32,000 bases of DNA, taken from assembly GCA_048939465.1 (NCBI GenBank), contig JBHLPL010000003.1, positions 1 to 32,000 on the forward strand, written 5' to 3'. Position numbers and translations under genes: made by a program. How positions within the stretch are numbered: the first letter of the stretch is position 1; every line of letters begins with the position of its first letter. Under the pieces are notes generated by a model, which ran no database searches, had not been told where the DNA came from, and worked only from the letters and a program-made list of their open reading frames with translations. Shown piece after piece: positions 4,033 to 29,183 of the stretch. Source of the stretch: Promethearchaeota archaeon (GTDB taxonomy: Archaea > Asgardarchaeota > Odinarchaeia > Odinarchaeales > JBHLKK01).

Positions 4033-4128
4033 TGGGCCCGCCGGGCTTCGATCCCGGGACCTTACCCGAAGTGTTCTCACTTTCTCGGTTATCAGCCGAG
4101 CGCTCTAACCAGGCTGAGCCACGGGCCC
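4033..4128 (-). tRNA. tRNA-Ile(GAT) with a ~21-nt intron in the variable region (best fit 43/44, 4063-4083)
   Basis: Acceptor GGGCCCG/CGGGCCC, D-stem GCTC/GAGC, anticodon arm CTCGG-CTGATAA-CCGAG, T-arm CCGGG-ATCGAAG-CCCGG. Removing AAAGTGAGAACACTTCGGGTA restores the variable region AGGTC. The BHB-like fold is relaxed and CCA is not encoded. Confidence 0.9.
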
Positions 4129-4195: not shown

Positions 4196-4298
4196 TGGTG
4201 GACCGGAGGGGATTTGAACCCCTGGCTTGCGGTCTCCTGCTAGTTGCAGTGACTCTCCGCCTTGCGAAGACGGCGATCTTCCACTGATCTACCGGCCC
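4196..4298 (-). tRNA. tRNA-Ala(CGC) with a 28-nt intron at 45/46 (4227-4254)
   Basis: Acceptor GGGCCGG/CCGGTCC with G3:U70, anticodon arm CCGTC-TTCGCAA-GGCGG, T-loop TTCAAAT, encoded CCA. A GCGG/CCGC central helix with two 3-nt bulges gives the mature variable region AGGCC. Confidence 0.93.
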
Positions 4299-4326: not shown

Positions 4327-6822
4327 TCAAGAGACTATGTAGATATATGGATGTTGTATCGATTCAGATTTAAAGACTAAGGTGTATTTCTCCTTTTTAG
4401 GTGGTTCTTGATCCCAATCTTGGTCCGGTCTATCGGAAAACGTTTGAGAGTCTTCCGGAGGGAAAAAGTCTAGAGTTTTGATGTTGTGCATGTTTTTAAG
4501 ATCTCTTTTGAATGGAGAGAGTTCTTCTGGTGCGTGCACGGCTGTGATCGGTGCGTTCAGGGCTATTCTCCGTGCTTTTTTAAATGACCAGATGGCGCTG
4601 TTAAATTCTGTAAATAGATCACTGAGCTGCAATATGGGCAACTCCCATTCTGAGCTGGGTTGAGGAAATTGCGTCGTATGAATGCTTTCTCCCTTAGAAT
4701 ACAGCTGTTGATATATTTTTTCCGTCATGAAGGGACATATAGGTGCTAGAAGTTTCAGAATTGTTTTGAGAACCATATGAAGCGTGTACCATGCCCCGTT
4801 CTGTAGCTCCGTGGAAAATTGTCCATTACGATTGTAGCATCTAGGTTTTACAGACTCTATGAAGTGAGACGCAAAGAAGTCCCAAGTGAAGGAGCGCACG
4901 CTAGTTGCCGGGGGTTGAAAATCTAAACCCTCATATCCTTGGATACATCGTCGAATGGTTTCGTTTAGTTTGGCCAAAACAAGACGATCAGTATCTGTGA
5001 ATTCATACCCATCCTGAGGTACTGGAAACGTCGATACGAACCTTGCAACGTTCCAAAGTTTAGTTAGGAATTTGAATGCCCCATTTAGCCGTTCTTCTGA
5101 GCAACGTATATCACTTCCAATACTTGCTTCCAGAGAATGAAATAGTCGGATGGCATCAGAACCGTATTTCTTAATGATGGGTTTAGGAGGTATTGTGTTT
5201 CCTAATGATGTGTGCATAGCTCTTCCTTCAGCATCAAGTACCATTCCACCAAGCCATATATTCTTGAATGCTGGTTTTTTCAGCAGTTGAAATGTTCTAA
5301 GTAAGCTGTAATATAGCCATGTTCGAACTATATCCTTCGCTTGAGTTCGTATGGAACAGGGGAACGCACGTTTGAAAAACCCTTCATCTCGCATGTAGGA
5401 TAGAATCTGAAGTTGACTTATTCCAGAGTCAAACCAGGTGTCGAACGTTCTCTCTTCGCCTACGAATTCACTGCTATCACAATACGGGCATTTGTCAAAT
5501 GGCGGTGGGTCTTTCCAAGGCTGATAATATTCTCCCGGTGGAGGTACTATTGGTTTATGACATTTCTTGCAGTACCATAAAGGAATCTCGTCTCCGTAGT
5601 ATCTTCTTCTGCTTATAGGCCAGTCCACGGTTATCGATTCTAACCAGTTTAGGAATATTTGTTTATGCTTTTTAGGGAACCATTTGATTTTTGACTCGAT
5701 TTTTCTAAGGTCTTCTTTGTAATCGAGTTGTTTCAAATAATATTCGGGCATAGCTACGAACTCTATCGGGTTTCCGGAACGCCAACATGTAGGCGTCCTA
5801 TGAATGGTCTTTTCTTGTTTGACAATGAGATCGCTTGCCTTTAGGTCTTCGATTATAGCATGCTTTGCTTCTCTTACGGTCATTCCAGCATACTTTCCAG
5901 CAGCCTTAGTCATCTTTCCATCAGGTGATATTGCAGCAATAGGTTCGAGTGCTAAATCCCTGAAAAGGCGTACGTCTGTGTAGTCACCATAGGAGCATGT
6001 CATTACTGCGCCAGTTCCAAACTCCATTCTTGCCTCACGATGAGGAATAATCGGGACCCTTATATCATACAATGGTACGATGGCAGTTTTATCGTGAAGG
6101 TGTCTATATCTTTCATCATCCGGATGTACCATCACAACTGCACAGGCAGGCAGTAGCTCTGGGCGTGTGGTTGCTATAACAAGATCTTCTCCGGTTTCTA
6201 GAACCCTGAATTTGATATAGACAAGATGTATCTCTTCTTCTTTGTATTCGATCTCCGCATCCGCAATTGTGGTATTACAAACTGGACACCAGTTATTAGG
6301 TCTTGTATCAACATATACTTGTCCTCTGTTCCATAATTCGATGAATGTTGCTTGGGTTATTCTTCTGTATTCAGGGCTATCTGTTCGGTATATGTCTTCA
6401 TGTTCAAAGGAGCTACAGCTTAGACCAAGACGTTCAAATAACCAAATGATTTCTTTTTCGTGTTTGTCGAGGAATTGTCGACATAGCGAGAGGAATTCCT
6501 CTCTTGGCGTTTCACGCATGGTTATTTTGAATTCTTTCTCAACCGAGACCTCTACAGGAAGTCCATTCCTGTCTATTCCGAGAGGAAACAGGACTTCAGA
6601 ACCGCACATCCGTTTATACCTAGCAATTACATCTATCTGGGAGTAGTGTATTACACGATGAAAAGCTAGCGTTCCAGACGGATAGGGAGGGGGTGTATCG
6701 ATAGAAAATATCGGTTTTTCTGTTTTCTTATCAAAAGCATATGTTTTTTTCTTTCTCCAAGAATGCATGATCTCTTCTTCGAGGTTAGGAATCCATCTTT
6801 TTTCCTTTAACTTTGGTCTCAT
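4327..6822 (-). CDS. valS: Valyl-tRNA synthetase homolog, archaeal type, with degenerate HIGH and KMSKS motifs
   Basis: SIDTPPPYPSG, HYSQID, GIDRNGLPVE, editing-domain motifs ATTRPELL and GTGAVMTCSYGD, DWPISRRRYYG, FDTWFDS, R..GA.KFLTKLWN. The HIGH position reads AFHR and the KMSKS position reads AMHTS. Confidence 0.9.
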   Translation of the reverse strand: MRPKLKEKRWIPNLEEEIMHSWRKKKTYAFDKKTEKPIFSIDTPPPYPSGTLAFHRVIHYSQIDVIARYKRMCGSEVLFPLGIDRNGLPVEVSVEKEFKITMRETPREEFLSLCRQFLDKHEKEIIWLFERLGLSCSSFEHEDIYRTDSPEYRRITQATFIELWNRGQVYVDTRPNNWCPVCNTTIADAEIEYKEEEIHLVYIKFRVLETGEDLVIATTRPELLPACAVVMVHPDDERYRHLHDKTAIVPLYDIRVPIIPHREARMEFGTGAVMTCSYGDYTDVRLFRDLALEPIAAISPDGKMTKAAGKYAGMTVREAKHAIIEDLKASDLIVKQEKTIHRTPTCWRSGNPIEFVAMPEYYLKQLDYKEDLRKIESKIKWFPKKHKQIFLNWLESITVDWPISRRRYYGDEIPLWYCKKCHKPIVPPPGEYYQPWKDPPPFDKCPYCDSSEFVGEERTFDTWFDSGISQLQILSYMRDEGFFKRAFPCSIRTQAKDIVRTWLYYSLLRTFQLLKKPAFKNIWLGGMVLDAEGRAMHTSLGNTIPPKPIIKKYGSDAIRLFHSLEASIGSDIRCSEERLNGAFKFLTKLWNVARFVSTFPVPQDGYEFTDTDRLVLAKLNETIRRCIQGYEGLDFQPPATSVRSFTWDFFASHFIESVKPRCYNRNGQFSTELQNGAWYTLHMVLKTILKLLAPICPFMTEKIYQQLYSKGESIHTTQFPQPSSEWELPILQLSDLFTEFNSAIWSFKKARRIALNAPITAVHAPEELSPFKRDLKNMHNIKTLDFFPPEDSQTFSDRPDQDWDQEPPKKEKYTLVFKSESIQHPYIYIVS

Positions 6823-8688: not shown

Positions 8689-9051
8689 TTGGTAGAATTT
8701 GAGTATAAGCAGGTTATTGTGGTACGTGCGGATTTGAAAATGTCTATCGGAAAAACCTCTGTTCAAGTAGCCCATGCTTCCGTTACCGCAGCTGAAGATG
8801 CAAGGAAAAACCGACGCAAATGGTGGAAAACTTGGATTTCTGAGGGGCAGAGAAAAATAGCTGTCAAAGTAGATTCTTTGGAGGAATTACTCGCTTTGGA
8901 GGACAAAGCCAAGGCATTAACCATACCACATGCCCTCATCACCGACAAAGGACTCACTGAGGTTCCTCCAGGCACTACGACCGCTTTAGGTATAGGCCCT
9001 GCCCCAAATGACATAATGGACAGGGTCACAGGAGGACTTCCTCTAATGTGA
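8689..9051 (+). CDS. pth2: Peptidyl-tRNA hydrolase, archaeal/Pth2 type
   Basis: YKQVIVVRADLKMSIGK...QVAHAS, GQRKIAVKV, ITDKGLTEVPPGTTTALGIGP; TTG start. Confidence 0.95.
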   Translation: MVEFEYKQVIVVRADLKMSIGKTSVQVAHASVTAAEDARKNRRKWWKTWISEGQRKIAVKVDSLEELLALEDKAKALTIPHALITDKGLTEVPPGTTTALGIGPAPNDIMDRVTGGLPLM

Positions 9052-9309
9052 ACTACTTCCAGCTTTCACAAGGGGTTTCCTCCCTCTCTCTGCCTCACGC
9101 GTCTGAGGACACTTCGGCTTCCCAGAGGGGGTTTCTGTGCCCCGAATTGACGGATACACAGGAGGAGGGGCTCGAGTTGGTTCACTCTTTAACGTGCCAC
9201 AGACACTCGGCGGCCTTGCCAAGCAGAATATACCTGCAAGGTCTGCGCTCTCAGACTGGGTTTCACGCCCATGCCGTTAGGCAAGCTTCCTCTTACGAGC
9301 ATCTTACCC
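9048..9309 (-). ncRNA. Unidentified structured ncRNA-like element, copy 1 (omega-RNA-like candidate)
   Basis: Many hairpins with GNRA loops and G:U pairs that work only on the minus strand. TATA-like box 21 nt upstream. Collinear homology to 14661-14873, with 31/39 nt identical at the 3' end. Confidence 0.7.
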
Positions 9310-9330
9310 AAAGCTTAACTTCCAAGAAAT

Positions 9331-9338
9331 CATTTAAA
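9331..9338 (-). promoter_or_regulatory. TATA-box candidate (TTTAAATG) for the copy-1 RNA
   Basis: Lies 21 nt before the start of the structured region, the same spacing as in copy 2. Confidence 0.5.
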
Positions 9339-9422
9339 CGCAACGCATCTCATTCACACGCTCTCGGACGGGGTCTCCTTGTGGAAAAAAGATAACAACG
9401 GGGTTGGGTTGGAGCTACTCAA

Positions 9423-10778
9423 ATGAGAATTTCCAAAATCGAAAAGCAGATGGGAATCGAGAAATACGGTAGCGGCACTCCAGGCATTGAAGGAAGGATC
9501 AAACAATTACTGGAAGACTTTATTGTCGAGGAAATTACACCCGAAGGAGAGATTCTATATTCGCGCAGGAGAGAGTCAATCGAGGAGAAGAAAATAGAGA
9601 GTAGCGGACCGTACACTTGGTTCACTCTTGAAAAGCATGGTTGGGATACTTTCAGTGTACTAAGACATTTGGCAAAAGTGCTCCATGTCGATTTAGAGCG
9701 CTTCTCCTTTGCTGGGATGAAAGATAAGAGGGGGATAACTGTACAACGCGCTAGTTGCTGGAAAGTCGCACCCGCTGAATTAGACAAAGTCTCCTTGAAA
9801 GATGTTTATCTTCGTGACTTCATTCGTTCAAAGAAATCAATTAAGCTAGGAGATTTGTGGGGTAATCACTTCACAATAAATGTACGAGACATGGAAGCAA
9901 ATATCGATTCATATTCTATTATGACAGAAACATGGAATGAATTGAAGGCTCATGATGTACCAAACTTCTTTGGTCATCAAAGATTTGGAACGCATAGGCC
10001 AATCACACATCTGGTCGGAAAGAATATATTAAAAGGTGATTTTAAGAACTCAGTCATCACATTTCTTACTGGAAATTCAATTCATGAAAAGGCCAATGTC
10101 AACAAAGCTCGACGCCAGCTAAATGAGACCCGCAACTTCAGCGAGGCCATCGAAGCTTTTCCAAAAAGCCTATGGTTTGAACAAACGGTGCTTCGCATTC
10201 TAGTGAAGAATGCAGAAGATTACATCGGTGCGCTCAGAGCACTCCCAAAGCGCTTCAGAATGATGTTTGTCCATGCATACCAAGCATATTTATTCAATAG
10301 ATTCTTGAGTGAACGAATCAGAAGAAATATTCCCCTAAATCGTGCAGTCAAAGGCGATATTGCGCGGATTATCAGCAAAGATTTTCCCCGCTATGTTAAG
10401 ATATCCGAAACGAATGAGCAAAAGATTGACGAAATGATAAGAATGGGGAAAGCATTTATCGTTCTTCCTCTAGTCGGATATTCTTCAAAACTTCCAGAGG
10501 GAGATATGGGAGAAATAGTCTCCAGAACACTAGGCGAGGAAGGAATCTCTCCCAAGGATTTCAGAGTTGAAAGAATGAGAGAACTGTCGTCATCAGGAGA
10601 ATTTCGCTCCGTTACTTTGCAGGTGAATAACATGAGATTCTCAGGACCGTCAAAAGACCGTATCGATCCGACAAAAACAGAAGTAGAATTCGATTTTTCT
10701 CTTCCAAAGGGTTGTTATGCAACTGTAGTCCTAAGAGAGTTCATGAAGTCAAAAGACATCATTGAAGCAGGATATTGA
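9423..10778 (+). CDS. truD: tRNA pseudouridine(13) synthase TruD
   Basis: IKQLLEDFIVEE, FAGMKDKRGITVQ (catalytic Asp), GDLWGNHF, PNFFGHQRFG, FSLPKGCYATVVLRE. Confidence 0.95.
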   Translation: MRISKIEKQMGIEKYGSGTPGIEGRIKQLLEDFIVEEITPEGEILYSRRRESIEEKKIESSGPYTWFTLEKHGWDTFSVLRHLAKVLHVDLERFSFAGMKDKRGITVQRASCWKVAPAELDKVSLKDVYLRDFIRSKKSIKLGDLWGNHFTINVRDMEANIDSYSIMTETWNELKAHDVPNFFGHQRFGTHRPITHLVGKNILKGDFKNSVITFLTGNSIHEKANVNKARRQLNETRNFSEAIEAFPKSLWFEQTVLRILVKNAEDYIGALRALPKRFRMMFVHAYQAYLFNRFLSERIRRNIPLNRAVKGDIARIISKDFPRYVKISETNEQKIDEMIRMGKAFIVLPLVGYSSKLPEGDMGEIVSRTLGEEGISPKDFRVERMRELSSSGEFRSVTLQVNNMRFSGPSKDRIDPTKTEVEFDFSLPKGCYATVVLREFMKSKDIIEAGY

Positions 10779-13257: not shown

Positions 13258-13379
13258 GGGCGGGTGGTCTAGCGGTCTATGACGCCGCCCTCAGTTTGTC
13301 AGATATCCTGCAAGCGGGTAAACACGGCGGAAACCTAAAAGGCCGAAAATCGCGAGTTCAAATCTCGCCCCGCCCACCA
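13258..13379 (+). tRNA. tRNA-Val(CAC) with two introns: 34/35 (13293-13321, 29 nt) and 45/46 (13333-13348, 16 nt)
   Basis: Acceptor GGGCGGG/CCCGCCC-A-CCA, D-arm GTC/GAC, anticodon stem CCGCC/GGCGG, T-arm GCGAG-TTCAAAT-CTCGC. BHB geometry (GCCC/GGGT helix, bulges TC|A and AA|A) gives the loop CT-CAC-AC. The second intron leaves the variable region AAATC. Confidence 0.88.
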
Positions 13380-14607: not shown

Positions 14608-14660
14608 AGTTCCTCACCAGTTCCAGGAAGCCATATCATATCTTTGACACTAATAGGAAG

Positions 14661-14873
14661 GTTAACTGCTCCCAGCTTTCGCGAGGGACATCCTCCCTCG
14701 AACTCTGAAAAGTTATTGAATCTGCTTTCGGAGTGTTCAACACTGAGGAGGTCTAGGGTTGGTTCACACCCATTGTTGGTGCCGCAGGCACGAGAGAGTC
14801 CTGCCCATCAGGACATACCCGAAGGGGCTGCTTCCTTTGCTTTCCCCTCCTCGCTTTCGAGGTCACAGATCTC
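14661..14873 (-). ncRNA. Unidentified structured ncRNA-like element, copy 2 (paralog of 9048-9309)
   Basis: Shares GTGYCTGYGGCAC, GTGAACCAAC, CCTCCTC/GAGGGAGG and CCCT-YGYGAAAGCTGG-RAGYAGTTMAC with copy 1, in the same order. Confidence 0.7.
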
Positions 14874-14894
14874 AATTTTGAGTATTTGAGAAAG

Positions 14895-14902
14895 TATTTA
14901 AG
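14895..14902 (-). promoter_or_regulatory. TATA-box candidate (CTTAAATA) for the copy-2 RNA
   Basis: 21 nt upstream of the structured region. The TTAAAT-nn-TTTCT context is shared with copy 1. Confidence 0.5.
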
Positions 14903-15031
14903 CCTAGCGCAATTCATCTCCGTTCCATCAGATGGAGTCCTCAATACGGAATAGTAGATAAAGCTCCCCACTACAAATATCGTCGACATTAAGCTGAGTC
15001 ATTAGTGGATTATTGTCGAGGTATACGCTCA

Positions 15032-22448: not shown

Positions 22449-22561
22449 TGGTGCGAGGGGTGGGACTTGAACCCACGAAGGCATACGCAAGAGTGTTGTA
22501 CCACTTTTTCTACGCCAAAGGATCTTGAGTCCTTCCCCGTTGACCGCTTGGGTACCCTCGC
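22449..22561 (-). tRNA. tRNA-Leu(CAA) with a 27-nt intron in the variable-arm loop (22483-22509)
   Basis: Acceptor GCGAGGG/CCCTCGC-A-CCA, anticodon arm AAGGA-CTCAAGA-TCCTT, T-arm GTGGG-TTCAAGT-CCCAC. BHB-consistent cuts (AG|A, AT|G) restore the typical Leu arm TGGCGTAGGCCTTC. Confidence 0.92.
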
Positions 22562-26716: not shown

Positions 26717-28897
26717 ATGGTGAGAGATTTGGAAATACGATTGCTTGTGACGGAAGCCAAGCAACGGGATGTGGGAAGATTTATTGCAAGACTCGATAAT
26801 GAGTCAATGGAATTATTAGAATTACAGCCTGGAGACATAGTCGGCATAAAAAGCCGTAAGAAAACCGCAGCCATAGCTTGGCCTGCATATGACGAGGATA
26901 AGGGTAAAAACATCATCAGAATTGACGGACGCATTAGAAAGAATATTGGTGCAAGCATAGGAGAAAAAGTCAGTGTTAGAAAAGGTGAAGATAAATCTGC
27001 AGCTTCAGTTGTTTTAGCACCAACATCGATTAGCATTAATGTTCCCAACTTCGAACGAATCATCAAAAGAAGGCTCCTAAACTATCCGTTGACCGTTGGA
27101 GACACAATTTTCATCCCAATCGGAATAACCAGAGAAATACCCTTCATAGTCGTATCGACTGAGCCAAAAGACATCGTTGTTGTAAGATCTCGTACAGCTA
27201 TCCAGATCAGCAAAAAACCGATGGCAGAAATTGCACGAATGCCGTATATAACGTACGAAGATATCGGGGGTCTAAGGGAGGCTATAAGACGCATACGTGA
27301 AATGATTGAGTTGCCACTCAAGCACCCGGAACTATTTAGTAGACTGGGTATTGAGCCGCCCCGAGGAGTTCTCTTTCATGGACCACCAGGATGTGGAAAG
27401 ACGCTCCTTGCACGCACAGTAGCCAATGAATCAGATGCATATTTCATATCCATTAATGGTCCGGAAGTTATGAGCAAGTTCTATGGCGAATCAGAACAAC
27501 GCATAAGAGAGATTTTTGAGAAAGCCGAGAAGAATACGCCAAGCATCGTGTTCATTGACGAGATAGATGCAATCGCGCCTAAGAGGGGAGAAGTCACAGG
27601 AGAGGTTGAAAGAAGAGTTGTTGCACAACTACTTGCACTGATGGACGGATTGCACGATCGTGGAAAGATCATAGTTATAGGCGCCACAAATAGACCTGAG
27701 GCGTTGGATTTGGCCTTGCGGCGTCCTGGAAGATTTGATCGAGAGATTGAGCTGGGTGTGCCAGGTATGGAAGAACGATTAGAGATTCTGCAAATCCATA
27801 CTCGGAGCATGCCTTTGTCGAAAAGTGTAGATCTAAAAGAGCTTGCGGAAATCACGCATGGATTTGTTGGTGCAGACTTGGCAGCCCTATGTAGAGAAGC
27901 TGCAATGAAAGTACTGCGCAGGTACATGCCTGAAATCAATCTTGCAGATGAAAGCATACCTTCAGAACTCTTAGACAAACTCGAAGTTCGAACAAGGGAT
28001 TTCATGAACGCACTAAAGGAGGTTCAGCCTTCCGCAATAAGGGAAGTGTCCATAGAAACACCAAGTGTCCACTGGGGAGATATCGGAAATCTGCAAGAAG
28101 TTAAGCAGAAGCTCATAGAGACGGTTGAGTGGCCCTTGAAGCAGGCAAAATCACTAAAGCGGATGGGAATAACAGCCCCCAAGGGAGTCTTAATGTATGG
28201 ACCCCCTGGATGTGGTAAAACTCTCTTGGCGCGTGCAGTGGCAACAGAAAGCAAAGCAAATTTCATTAGTATCAAAGGGCCCGAAATACTAAGTAAATGG
28301 GTTGGTGAATCTGAGAAGGCCGTCCGAGAGATTTTTAGGAAAGCAAGGATGGTGGCTCCGGCTATCATTTTCTTTGATGAAATTGATGCCTTAGCTCCCA
28401 AACGAGGGAGAGATTATGGTGGTTCTTTGGTTACTGAACGAATCATAAGCCAACTCCTAACTGAACTGGACGGATTAGCGGACTCAAGGGATGTAATTGT
28501 ATTGGCCGCGACTAACAGACCCGATATGCTCGACCCTGCACTGGTTAGGCCTGGACGGTTCGATAGATCAATCTATATACCGTCACCTGAAGAAGAAGCA
28601 CGATCGGAGATACTAAAAATATATACACAAAAAATGCCTCTAGCAGATGATGTCAAAATAGAGCAAATAGCTGGAATGACTGAGAACTACGTTGGCGCGG
28701 ATATAGAAGCTTTGTGTAGAGAAGCAGCCATGTTAGCTCTGAGAGAAGATTTAGATGCTAAGAGAGTTCATCGAAAACACTTTGAGATAGCTTTAAAGGA
28801 GATTCACCCTACTGTAAATCAGGAAATAATACGATGGTATGAGCGTCTGAAGGAGAGGTTCAAACAAACTCAGATTGGTCCATCACACGTAACATAG
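26717..28897 (+). CDS. cdc48: Cdc48/VCP (VAT) double-AAA ATPase
   Basis: N-domain ([13 protein letters not shown]) plus two AAA modules (GPPGCGKT twice, FIDEID and FFDEID, RPGRFDR twice). Confidence 0.97.
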
Positions 28898-28919: not shown

Positions 28920-29183
28920 ATGAAACGACGGTATTGGGATCTTGTACCCCTGAGGAATGCCATATTAAACGCCATTGCCAAAAGACAAGGCATATTACTT
29001 GATAACGAACTCTTTACAATGCTTCAAAAGGATTTCAAGGATCTATCCTACACCAAACTGAATAAGGCTCTTATGGCGCTTGAGATAGAGGGGGTAGTTC
29101 ACGTTTCACAAATCACAAAAACCAAGAGAAGAATTGAAGTCATGAAAGAAGGAGAAGGATTTCTGCTGGTCGGCGAAGATTAA
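28920..29183 (+). CDS. Winged-helix protein encoded directly downstream of cdc48
   Basis: LSYTKLNKALMALEIEGVVHV is helix-wing-like. The start may be ATG 28905 or 28920. Confidence 0.7.
   Translation: MKRRYWDLVPLRNAILNAIAKRQGILLDNELFTMLQKDFKDLSYTKLNKALMALEIEGVVHVSQITKTKRRIEVMKEGEGFLLVGED

Follow-up and report, generated by a model that had tools for sequence, protein, structure and literature searches.

Probable protein-less derivatives of tnpB transposons, with an omega-RNA-type scaffold, at two intergenic sites in a Promethearchaeota genome

The window analysed here is a stretch of 32,000 nt, positions 1-32,000 of contig C77 (JBHLPL010000003.1) in the Promethearchaeota archaeon assembly GCA_048939465.1, which is labelled G000 below (1.96 Mb in 152 contigs, 91% complete). 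Two of its intergenic regions are occupied by related stretches of DNA that carry no protein gene. Copy 1 sits between the stop of pth2 and the start of truD, and copy 2 between a presenilin-like gene and amzA. Both lie on the minus strand, on which all empty sites, element ends and motifs quoted in this paper are also read. At 344 and 297 nt they are too short to encode a transposase or a TnpB protein. We consider, with a probability of roughly 90%, that both are non-autonomous, protein-less derivatives of IS200/IS605 transposons (of the IS1341 type, bearing tnpB), resembling palindrome-associated transposable elements (PATEs) and retaining an omega-RNA-type scaffold. This kind of element has already been described, and the two copies are not a new kind of system. 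An earlier, sequence-only reading of the window had regarded the two stretches as stand-alone right-end scaffolds, either of non-autonomous elements or of domesticated guide-RNA genes, and had found neither tnpA nor tnpB in the 32,000 nt, a negative that holds.

A family search of G000 by BLAST and an iterated nhmmer profile found 27 diverged copies, 66-79% identical to copy 1; with identities at this level, none is a recent transposition. There are two subfamilies, a long one with a core of about 285 nt, which includes copy 1, and a short one with a core of about 245 nt, which includes copy 2. A repeat search of the window did not link copies 1 and 2, because they are too diverged, and it was a motif search, together with nhmmer, that did so. 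The motif, GGRAGYAGTTMAC, has three matches in the window at no more than one mismatch, against 0.2 expected. The third of these (29090-29102) was rejected as a chance match, as it is coding sequence, within a 92-codon open reading frame (ORF), and resembles the family in nothing else.

The 3' boundary of the element is exact: in 27 members the similarity stops at GTTCAC, and the flanks that follow are unrelated and differ from copy to copy, so that scaffold and flank are sharply divided. Copy 1 ends in ...GGAAGTAGTTCAC at 9048 (a longer reading, from 9333 to 9048, ends in ...GAAAGCTGGAAGTAGTTCAC) and copy 2 in ...GGGAGCAGTTAAC at 14661 (longer reading, ...GAAAGCTGGGAGCAGTTAAC). The sequence-only reading was correct at this end, both in giving the two copies a small hairpin followed by RAGYAGUUMAC and in its choice of predicted guides, which are the true 3' flanks. 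It was mistaken at the other end, where it set the boundary right after TTAA and took TTAA to be the target motif. Conservation runs about 58 nt further upstream of TTTAA, with the consensus TTTAT/CTNTTCTCCGCAAGAAGACCCCATCCGAGAGGGTGGAGATGAATTGCGTTGTGTTTAAATGAT... (a slash marks a junction between flank and element), and TTAA is therefore internal. It belongs to a TATA-like box, TTTAAAT, a candidate promoter that is unaltered in 11 of 20 copies and has the form YTTAAAT in 14 of the 20. The real left ends are at 9391, next to TTAT, and at 14957, next to TTTAT. Among the 5' flanks of 20 copies TTTAT occurs nine times and TTCAT three times, and 15 end in AT, which suggests a target-adjacent motif (TAM) of about TTYAT. 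The family consensus has a palindrome near each end, CCATCC-GAGA-GGGTGG on the left and CCTTGC-GAAA-GCTGGG on the right; the left one is degenerate in copy 1 and is retained as a partial hairpin in copy 2.

Evidence that these are insertions comes from G001 and G002, two genomes of the same genus as G000, both of which have the syntenic region for the two sites. The copy-1 site is empty in both, the two empty sites reading CCATTAT/ATAAGAGG and CCATTAT/ATTAGGGT, against GTTGTTAT/CT...GTTCAC/ATTAGAGG at the occupied site in the window. The empty sites fix both ends of copy 1, at 9048 and 9391, and indicate insertion 3' of TTAT without target duplication (TTAT/element/ATTAGAGG compared with CCATTAT/ATAAGAGG). 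At the copy-2 site G001 is again empty, GCTTTAT/TTTTCAGTC (GCTTTAT/TTTTCAG), and G002 is occupied, ACTTTAT/element/TTTTCAGTC, with the same TTTAT and the same right flank. From the congener sites, copy 2 begins on its left side at 14957, adjoining TTTAT, and comparison with the empty site in G001 shows that this insertion too caused no target duplication. The empty alleles that the sequence-only reading had suggested looking for in relatives thus exist at both sites.

Copy 1 also supplies the last codon and the stop of pth2 (ATG TGA). The gene ends in ATA TAA in the congeners, where it reads ...CTT ATA TAA or ...CTA ATA TAA (LPLI or LTLI, then stop), with truD within about 25 nt. Removal of copy 1 gives the joint CTA AT/A TAA, as in the congeners; the restored protein end that had been predicted, LPLI-stop, is right, although the joint through which it was obtained is not. 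Only one frame spans copy 1, an ORF of 115 codons on the opposite strand (window 9048-9395, +); other public assemblies of the organism annotate it as a gene (L058 626-973), with no Pfam hit on record. This ORF is most likely a spurious call over a mini-transposon.

The relationship to tnpB transposons is seen within G000 itself, which holds three tnpB-bearing elements, on C2, on C105 and across C70 and C55 (Table 1). Their TnpB proteins have the Pfam domains HTH_OrfB_IS605, OrfB_IS605 and Cas12f1-like_TNB, that of C2 matches the ISDra2 TnpB structures in the PDB (E 1e-60), and the tnpA product has Y1_Tnp; this is the single Y1 (HUH) TnpA gene of the genome. The right ends of the three tnpB genes have the form GGAAGCYCCATCC-loop-GGGYGGRGYAGTT(C or T)AC/flank. 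This is the terminal module of the gene-less copies, the 3' ends of which (...GGAAGCCCC-hairpin-GRGYAGTTCAC/flank) match the right ends of tnpB elements; the sequence-only reading had proposed a genome search for tnpB or tnpA genes ending in the same scaffold, and such a module is what the search found. The 5' segment that the gene-less copies conserve (..CTNTTCTCCGCAAGAAGACCCCATCCGAGAGGGTGGAGATGAATTGCG..TTTAAAT..) corresponds, in turn, to the left ends of the C2 (tnpB) and C105 (tnpA and tnpB) elements, and in C2 the match takes in the TTTAAAT box, which there precedes the tnpB ATG by about 60 nt. Because both ends match tnpB elements, a gene-less copy can be described as an element in which three parts have been kept: the left end, comprising a subterminal palindrome (degenerate in copy 1) and the TATA-like box that stands upstream of tnpB in full-length elements; the structured region which overlaps the 3' end of tnpB in full-length elements, that is, the omega-RNA scaffold; and the right end, a small hairpin followed by GTAGTTCAC. 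What has been lost is the body of tnpB, roughly 1 kb. The description as stand-alone right-end scaffolds was therefore sound as regards the scaffold and right end of a tnpB element, but these are whole mini-transposons that also have a left end and a promoter-like box.

Two deletion intermediates are present in G000. One, at the end of C130 (~5375-5380), joins the left end to the final ~150 nt of a tnpB of the C2 type, and the other (C151:207-644) has the left end, a decayed 5' part of tnpB and the right end. Further remnants of TnpB C-termini were found by tblastn at C77:45432-45623 (outside the window), C73:1803-2307 and C5:1020-1295, and decayed tnpB elements of several other families are present in G000. 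As a separate observation, the left end of the C105 element (L007 997-1045) contains CTCCATCCGGAAGGGTGGAGTAGTTTAC, nearly the same hairpin and tail as its own right end, CCCCATCCTTTAGGGTGGAGTAGTTCAC, so that this element has a near-duplicate end module at its left and right ends.

A full-length counterpart is found at the copy-2 site itself. The G002 element there is 1.29 kb long and bears tnpB; the 3' end of this gene, the last ~200 nt of the element (...GGGAAGTGAACCAGCCCCAAACCTCCCC...GAGGGAGGAAGCCCCTTGCGAAAGCTAGGGGTAGTTCAC/), is the short-subfamily scaffold, and ~1 kb of tnpB body is absent from copy 2. Divergence between G002 and the window is alike for flank and element (about 74-80%), a pattern compatible with one old insertion, shared by the two genomes, that later underwent an internal deletion; alternatively, there may have been independent insertions at the same TAM. 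The G002 tnpB has one in-frame TGA (L027 1564-1566, G002:C94), at a position where the G001 homologue has a sense codon, and is probably a pseudogene.

An intact frame of the same lineage, of 417 codons, is present in G001 (L062, G001:C76), with the same scaffold and the same left end, including the TATA-like box (CTTAAAT), which as in C2 lies upstream of the tnpB ATG by about 60 nt. More generally, the short-subfamily scaffold corresponds to the 3' end (last ~200 nt) of intact tnpB genes in G001 and in the genomes labelled G007 and G018, and two genomes of another family yielded further copies of this TnpB lineage in a phylum-wide protein search. In the long subfamily, the 3' two-thirds of the scaffold align to the same tnpB 3' region; those of copy 1 show homology to the 3' end of tnpB and to the right end in the G001 and G002 elements. 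In the cognate lineage the canonical glutamate of RuvC-II is replaced by glycine (IVFGDL or IVFGGL) in L062, L027, L063 and L064, in intact and broken copies alike, and the C105 TnpB (IIVGDL) also has glycine. These proteins fit the class of 'RuvC-II rearranged' TnpBs, a common type which is predicted to stay active (PMC10691335).

Table 1. Coordinates of the two gene-less copies, their parts, the genes adjoining copy 1 and the tnpB-bearing elements of G000 (window positions unless a contig is named; nt, nucleotides; aa, amino acids).
Feature	Position	Strand	Basis or remark
Copy 1, complete gene-less IS200/IS605-type element, 344 nt	9048..9391	-	Family profile, conserved 5' extension, empty sites in G001 and G002
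Target/TAM-like motif GTTAT at left end of copy 1 (core TTAT, 9392-9395)	9392..9396	-	Empty sites
Left-end segment of copy 1, homologous to left ends of tnpB elements	9339..9391	-	Comparison with C2 and C105 left ends
TTTAAAT, TATA-like box inside left end of copy 1	9332..9338	-	Family alignment; the TTAA of the sequence-only reading falls within it
Predicted omega-RNA-type scaffold of copy 1	9048..9310	-	5' end approximate, ~25 nt downstream of TATA-like box
Internal GUGAAC of copy 1	9180..9185	-	6/6 complementary to terminal GUUCAC (9048-9053)
3' flank of copy 1, would-be guide ATTAGAGGAAGTCCTCCTGT	9028..9047	-	Begins where family similarity stops; antisense to last pth2 codons
Copy 2, gene-less element of short subfamily, 297 nt	14661..14957	-	Profile match; congener sites
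TTTAT, target/TAM-like motif at left end of copy 2	14958..14962	-	Empty site in G001, occupied site in G002
CTTAAAT, TATA-like box of copy 2	14896..14902	-	Aligned to family TTTAAAT
Internal GUGAAC of copy 2	14762..14767	-	5/6 complementary to terminal GUUAAC (14661-14666)
3' flank of copy 2, would-be guide CTTCCTATTAGTGTCAAAGA	14641..14660	-	
pth2	8689..9051	+	Pfam PTH2 recorded for the same gene in another assembly
truD	9423..10778	+	Start 31 nt past left end of copy 1
tnpB-only element	C2:26093-27244		383 aa
tnpA(Y1) and tnpB element	C105		Y1_Tnp gene C105:1108-1557, E 7e-37
Third tnpB	C70/C55		Split over two contig ends

The sequence-only reading had proposed that the internal GUGAAC pairs with the terminal hexamer to form a pseudoknot. 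The complementarity is as it claimed (Table 1), but in the single-sequence fold the helix closes the 3' domain as a nested helix, with no pseudoknot. Over 31 sequences this terminal pairing is maintained in 81% of cells, compared with 8-38% when the partner is slid. Few changes affect both sides; there are compensatory cases, GCGAAC with GUUCGC (C106) and GUAAAC with GUUUAC (the C55 tnpB), the count of which does not exceed that in shuffles, and several members have two or three broken pairs. For the 3' module, taken from 11 short copies and four tnpB-linked sequences, the four proposed helices are paired in 88% of cells, where sliding them gives 41-50%; covariation scores 0.190, compared with 0.162, and 7 of 500 shuffles reach the score. 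The 3' module is compatible with a conserved fold, for which the support is modest. The consensus that RNAalifold produced from 14 copies of the long subfamily was weak (-19 kcal/mol, three compensatory pairs), and an all-against-all helix scan was dominated by chance helices rich in G and U.

From what is established for other members of the IS200/IS605 group, a mechanism can be outlined. The single Y1 TnpA would excise the element and paste it as single-stranded DNA by way of its end hairpins (the IS200/IS605 model; PMC10055086). Transcription from the left-end promoter would cross the scaffold and continue into the 3' flank, and the product would be an omega-RNA with the flank as its putative guide; a TnpB made elsewhere would cut the scarless empty joint (TTAT plus flank), after which recombination would restore the element (both steps after the model in PMC10055086).

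Several observations weigh against this reading of the elements, or against parts of it. The cognate TnpB lineage is represented in G000 (at 91% completeness) only by remnants, the best open frame being 94 amino acids, and the three TnpBs that are present are 23-44% identical to it; because of this, the G000 TnpBs may be unable to use the scaffold in trans. For the long subfamily, that of copy 1, a DNA search of 30 relatives found no parent linked to tnpB. The left-end palindrome of copy 1 folds no longer, DNA folding giving no stable hairpin where the element with tnpA and tnpB has one of 9 bp. Most paired columns show so little variation that covariation is modest, the single-sequence fold of copy 1 (-94.7 kcal/mol, z-score -1.5) is unexceptional, and Rfam searches (gathering scores; E up to 10) gave no match to the scaffold, only tRNAs and two chance matches to long non-coding RNAs. 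Finally, we infer the transcription, RNA ends and TnpB binding of copies 1 and 2 by analogy with the systems cited.

The alternative to which these points lend most weight is that the copies are inert fossils, dead remains of IS200/IS605 elements that give no usable guide RNA, are not mobilised and have no TnpB partner. It concerns present activity and not identity, and we regard it as a serious possibility, albeit not the one we favour. Besides the remnant state of the cognate TnpB and the degenerate left palindrome of copy 1, it would explain the mismatched terminal hexamer of copy 2, the broken pairs in other members and the divergence of the copies from one another. Set against it are the length, TATA-like box and scaffold helices, which have been kept across diverged copies, and the presence in G000 of one TnpA and of three TnpB genes whose right ends carry the terminal module of the family. 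Since the assembly is incomplete, it could also have missed an intact cognate tnpB.

A role in the host seems much less probable. One form of it is that the cassettes are more than decaying parasites and are kept, with their own promoter, as a dispersed guide-RNA library for a RuvC-II-rearranged TnpB of this archaeal lineage, or that read-through transcripts regulate the abutting genes by an antisense mechanism (the would-be guide of copy 1 is antisense to the last pth2 codons); we think this speculative and quite improbable. No more credit can be given to the other form, also raised by the sequence-only reading, in which the copies are domesticated genes for trans-acting guide RNAs, kept by the host so that a TnpB or a nuclease-dead TldR-type protein can act at other loci. 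The promoter-like box of each cassette, the conservation of the scaffold among diverged copies and the missing RuvC-II glutamate of the cognate lineage could all be cited for domestication, but the glycine substitution is, as noted above, typical of a common class predicted to be active. The transposon ends have been kept, and the window loci are not fixed, as both sites are empty in at least one congener. The guides, moreover, are simply the flanks. When the genome was searched for further matches, as had been proposed, none of the 27 flanks had a second target with a TTYAT motif beside it at 0-1 mismatch, a result that speaks against domestication for targeting; there were background matches at 2-3 mismatches, and the lone match at one mismatch lacks the TAM and is within chance expectation (~1).

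That the copies are structured non-coding RNA genes unrelated to transposons, their likeness to insertion sequence ends being coincidental, is suggested by their many GNRA-type loops and helices, their intergenic positions and the lack of an ORF, but it is refuted by the homology of both ends, over tens of bases, to the ends of tnpB and tnpA elements, by that of the core to the 3' coding end of tnpB, by the insertion polymorphism at the TTAT motif and by the occurrence of a full-length parent where copy 2 is inserted. The balance of the evidence, namely the end homologies, the scaffold at the 3' end of congener tnpB genes, the empty sites and the tnpB and tnpA genes of the genome, supports the identification of both copies as non-autonomous IS200/IS605 elements with an omega-RNA-type scaffold.

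TldR proteins are nuclease-dead, TnpB-like repressors with a fixed, omega-RNA-like guide encoded at the locus. TldR loci are immobile and without transposon ends, and their guides match a host promoter. The elements described here differ in having kept their transposon ends, in occupying polymorphic sites and in having guides that match only their own flank.

One close likeness is to PATEs, which are known from Haloquadratum walsbyi and other haloarchaea (Dyall-Smith et al. 2011, PMC3119063). These are likewise too short for a transposase and cause no target duplication. They lack inverted terminal repeats and have near-terminal palindromes related to those of IS605-type transposons, as the family here appears to have in its consensus; they, too, arose from IS1341/IS605-type elements by deletion of the core, are heterogeneous, outnumber their parents and show strain-specific insertions (PMC3119063). 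They differ in belonging to another archaeal lineage and in size, many Haloquadratum PATEs being fused ends of ~52 bp (PMC3119063), whereas the elements here are about 300-345 nt long because a whole guide-RNA scaffold and putative promoter have been kept; the 2011 description also predates the omega-RNA concept. A second comparison is with the PATE-like ISGst elements of Geobacillus stearothermophilus (Meers et al. 2023, PMC10055086), which also consist of the left and right ends of tnpB elements without a protein gene, with a TAM at the left end and a guide at the right. Those elements often encode omega-RNAs that need the TnpB of another element, and one TnpA mobilises them in trans (PMC10055086). 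Their host is bacterial and their sequences are unrelated, and it is in the elements here that the left end has a putative TATA-type promoter; their activity is experimentally established, whereas the present elements are known from sequence alone.

Standalone omega-RNAs of OMEGA systems work in trans, according to the account of Altae-Tran et al. (2021) given in PMC10691335. As that account has it, they resemble the present copies in being mobilised loci without effector or transposase in genomes that also hold effector-bearing loci; the difference is that in G000 a compatible effector is found only as remnants. Sense-overlapping transcripts termed sotRNAs are described at the 3' end of archaeal IS1341-type tnpB genes (Gomes-Filho et al. 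2015, PMC4615843). This is non-coding RNA from the region of tnpB that the mini-elements keep, although sotRNAs, as there described, lie inside intact tnpB genes and here tnpB is deleted. Lastly, tnpB genes linked to aCas1 in Asgard archaea are reported to be followed by a hypervariable region and then a conserved GTTCACTCA (PMC10691335). The hexamer is alike in the elements here, but the order differs, GTTCAC preceding the variable flank.

Two other features of the window may be mentioned. Its four tRNA genes (4033-4128, 4199-4298, 13258-13376 and 22452-22561) presumably carry introns, given their lengths of 96-119 nt; intron-bearing tRNA genes are common in some archaeal lineages. A 726-codon ORF (26717-28897, +), which may encode a two-domain AAA ATPase of the Cdc48 type, contains an internal direct repeat (27866-27916 and 28691-28741, 71% identical).

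The two copies provide an archaeal and cleanly bounded example of the decay of a tnpB transposon into cassettes of putative promoter and guide RNA; a single genus offers every stage of it, from the full-length parent through deletion intermediates to copies with no gene, together with empty sites. For annotation, they identify the ORF across copy 1 as a call that is most likely spurious. They also define a putative TAM (TTYAT) and a scaffold for an uncharacterised lineage of RuvC-II-rearranged TnpBs, and may be of use in studying for how long an omega-RNA module survives without its nuclease.

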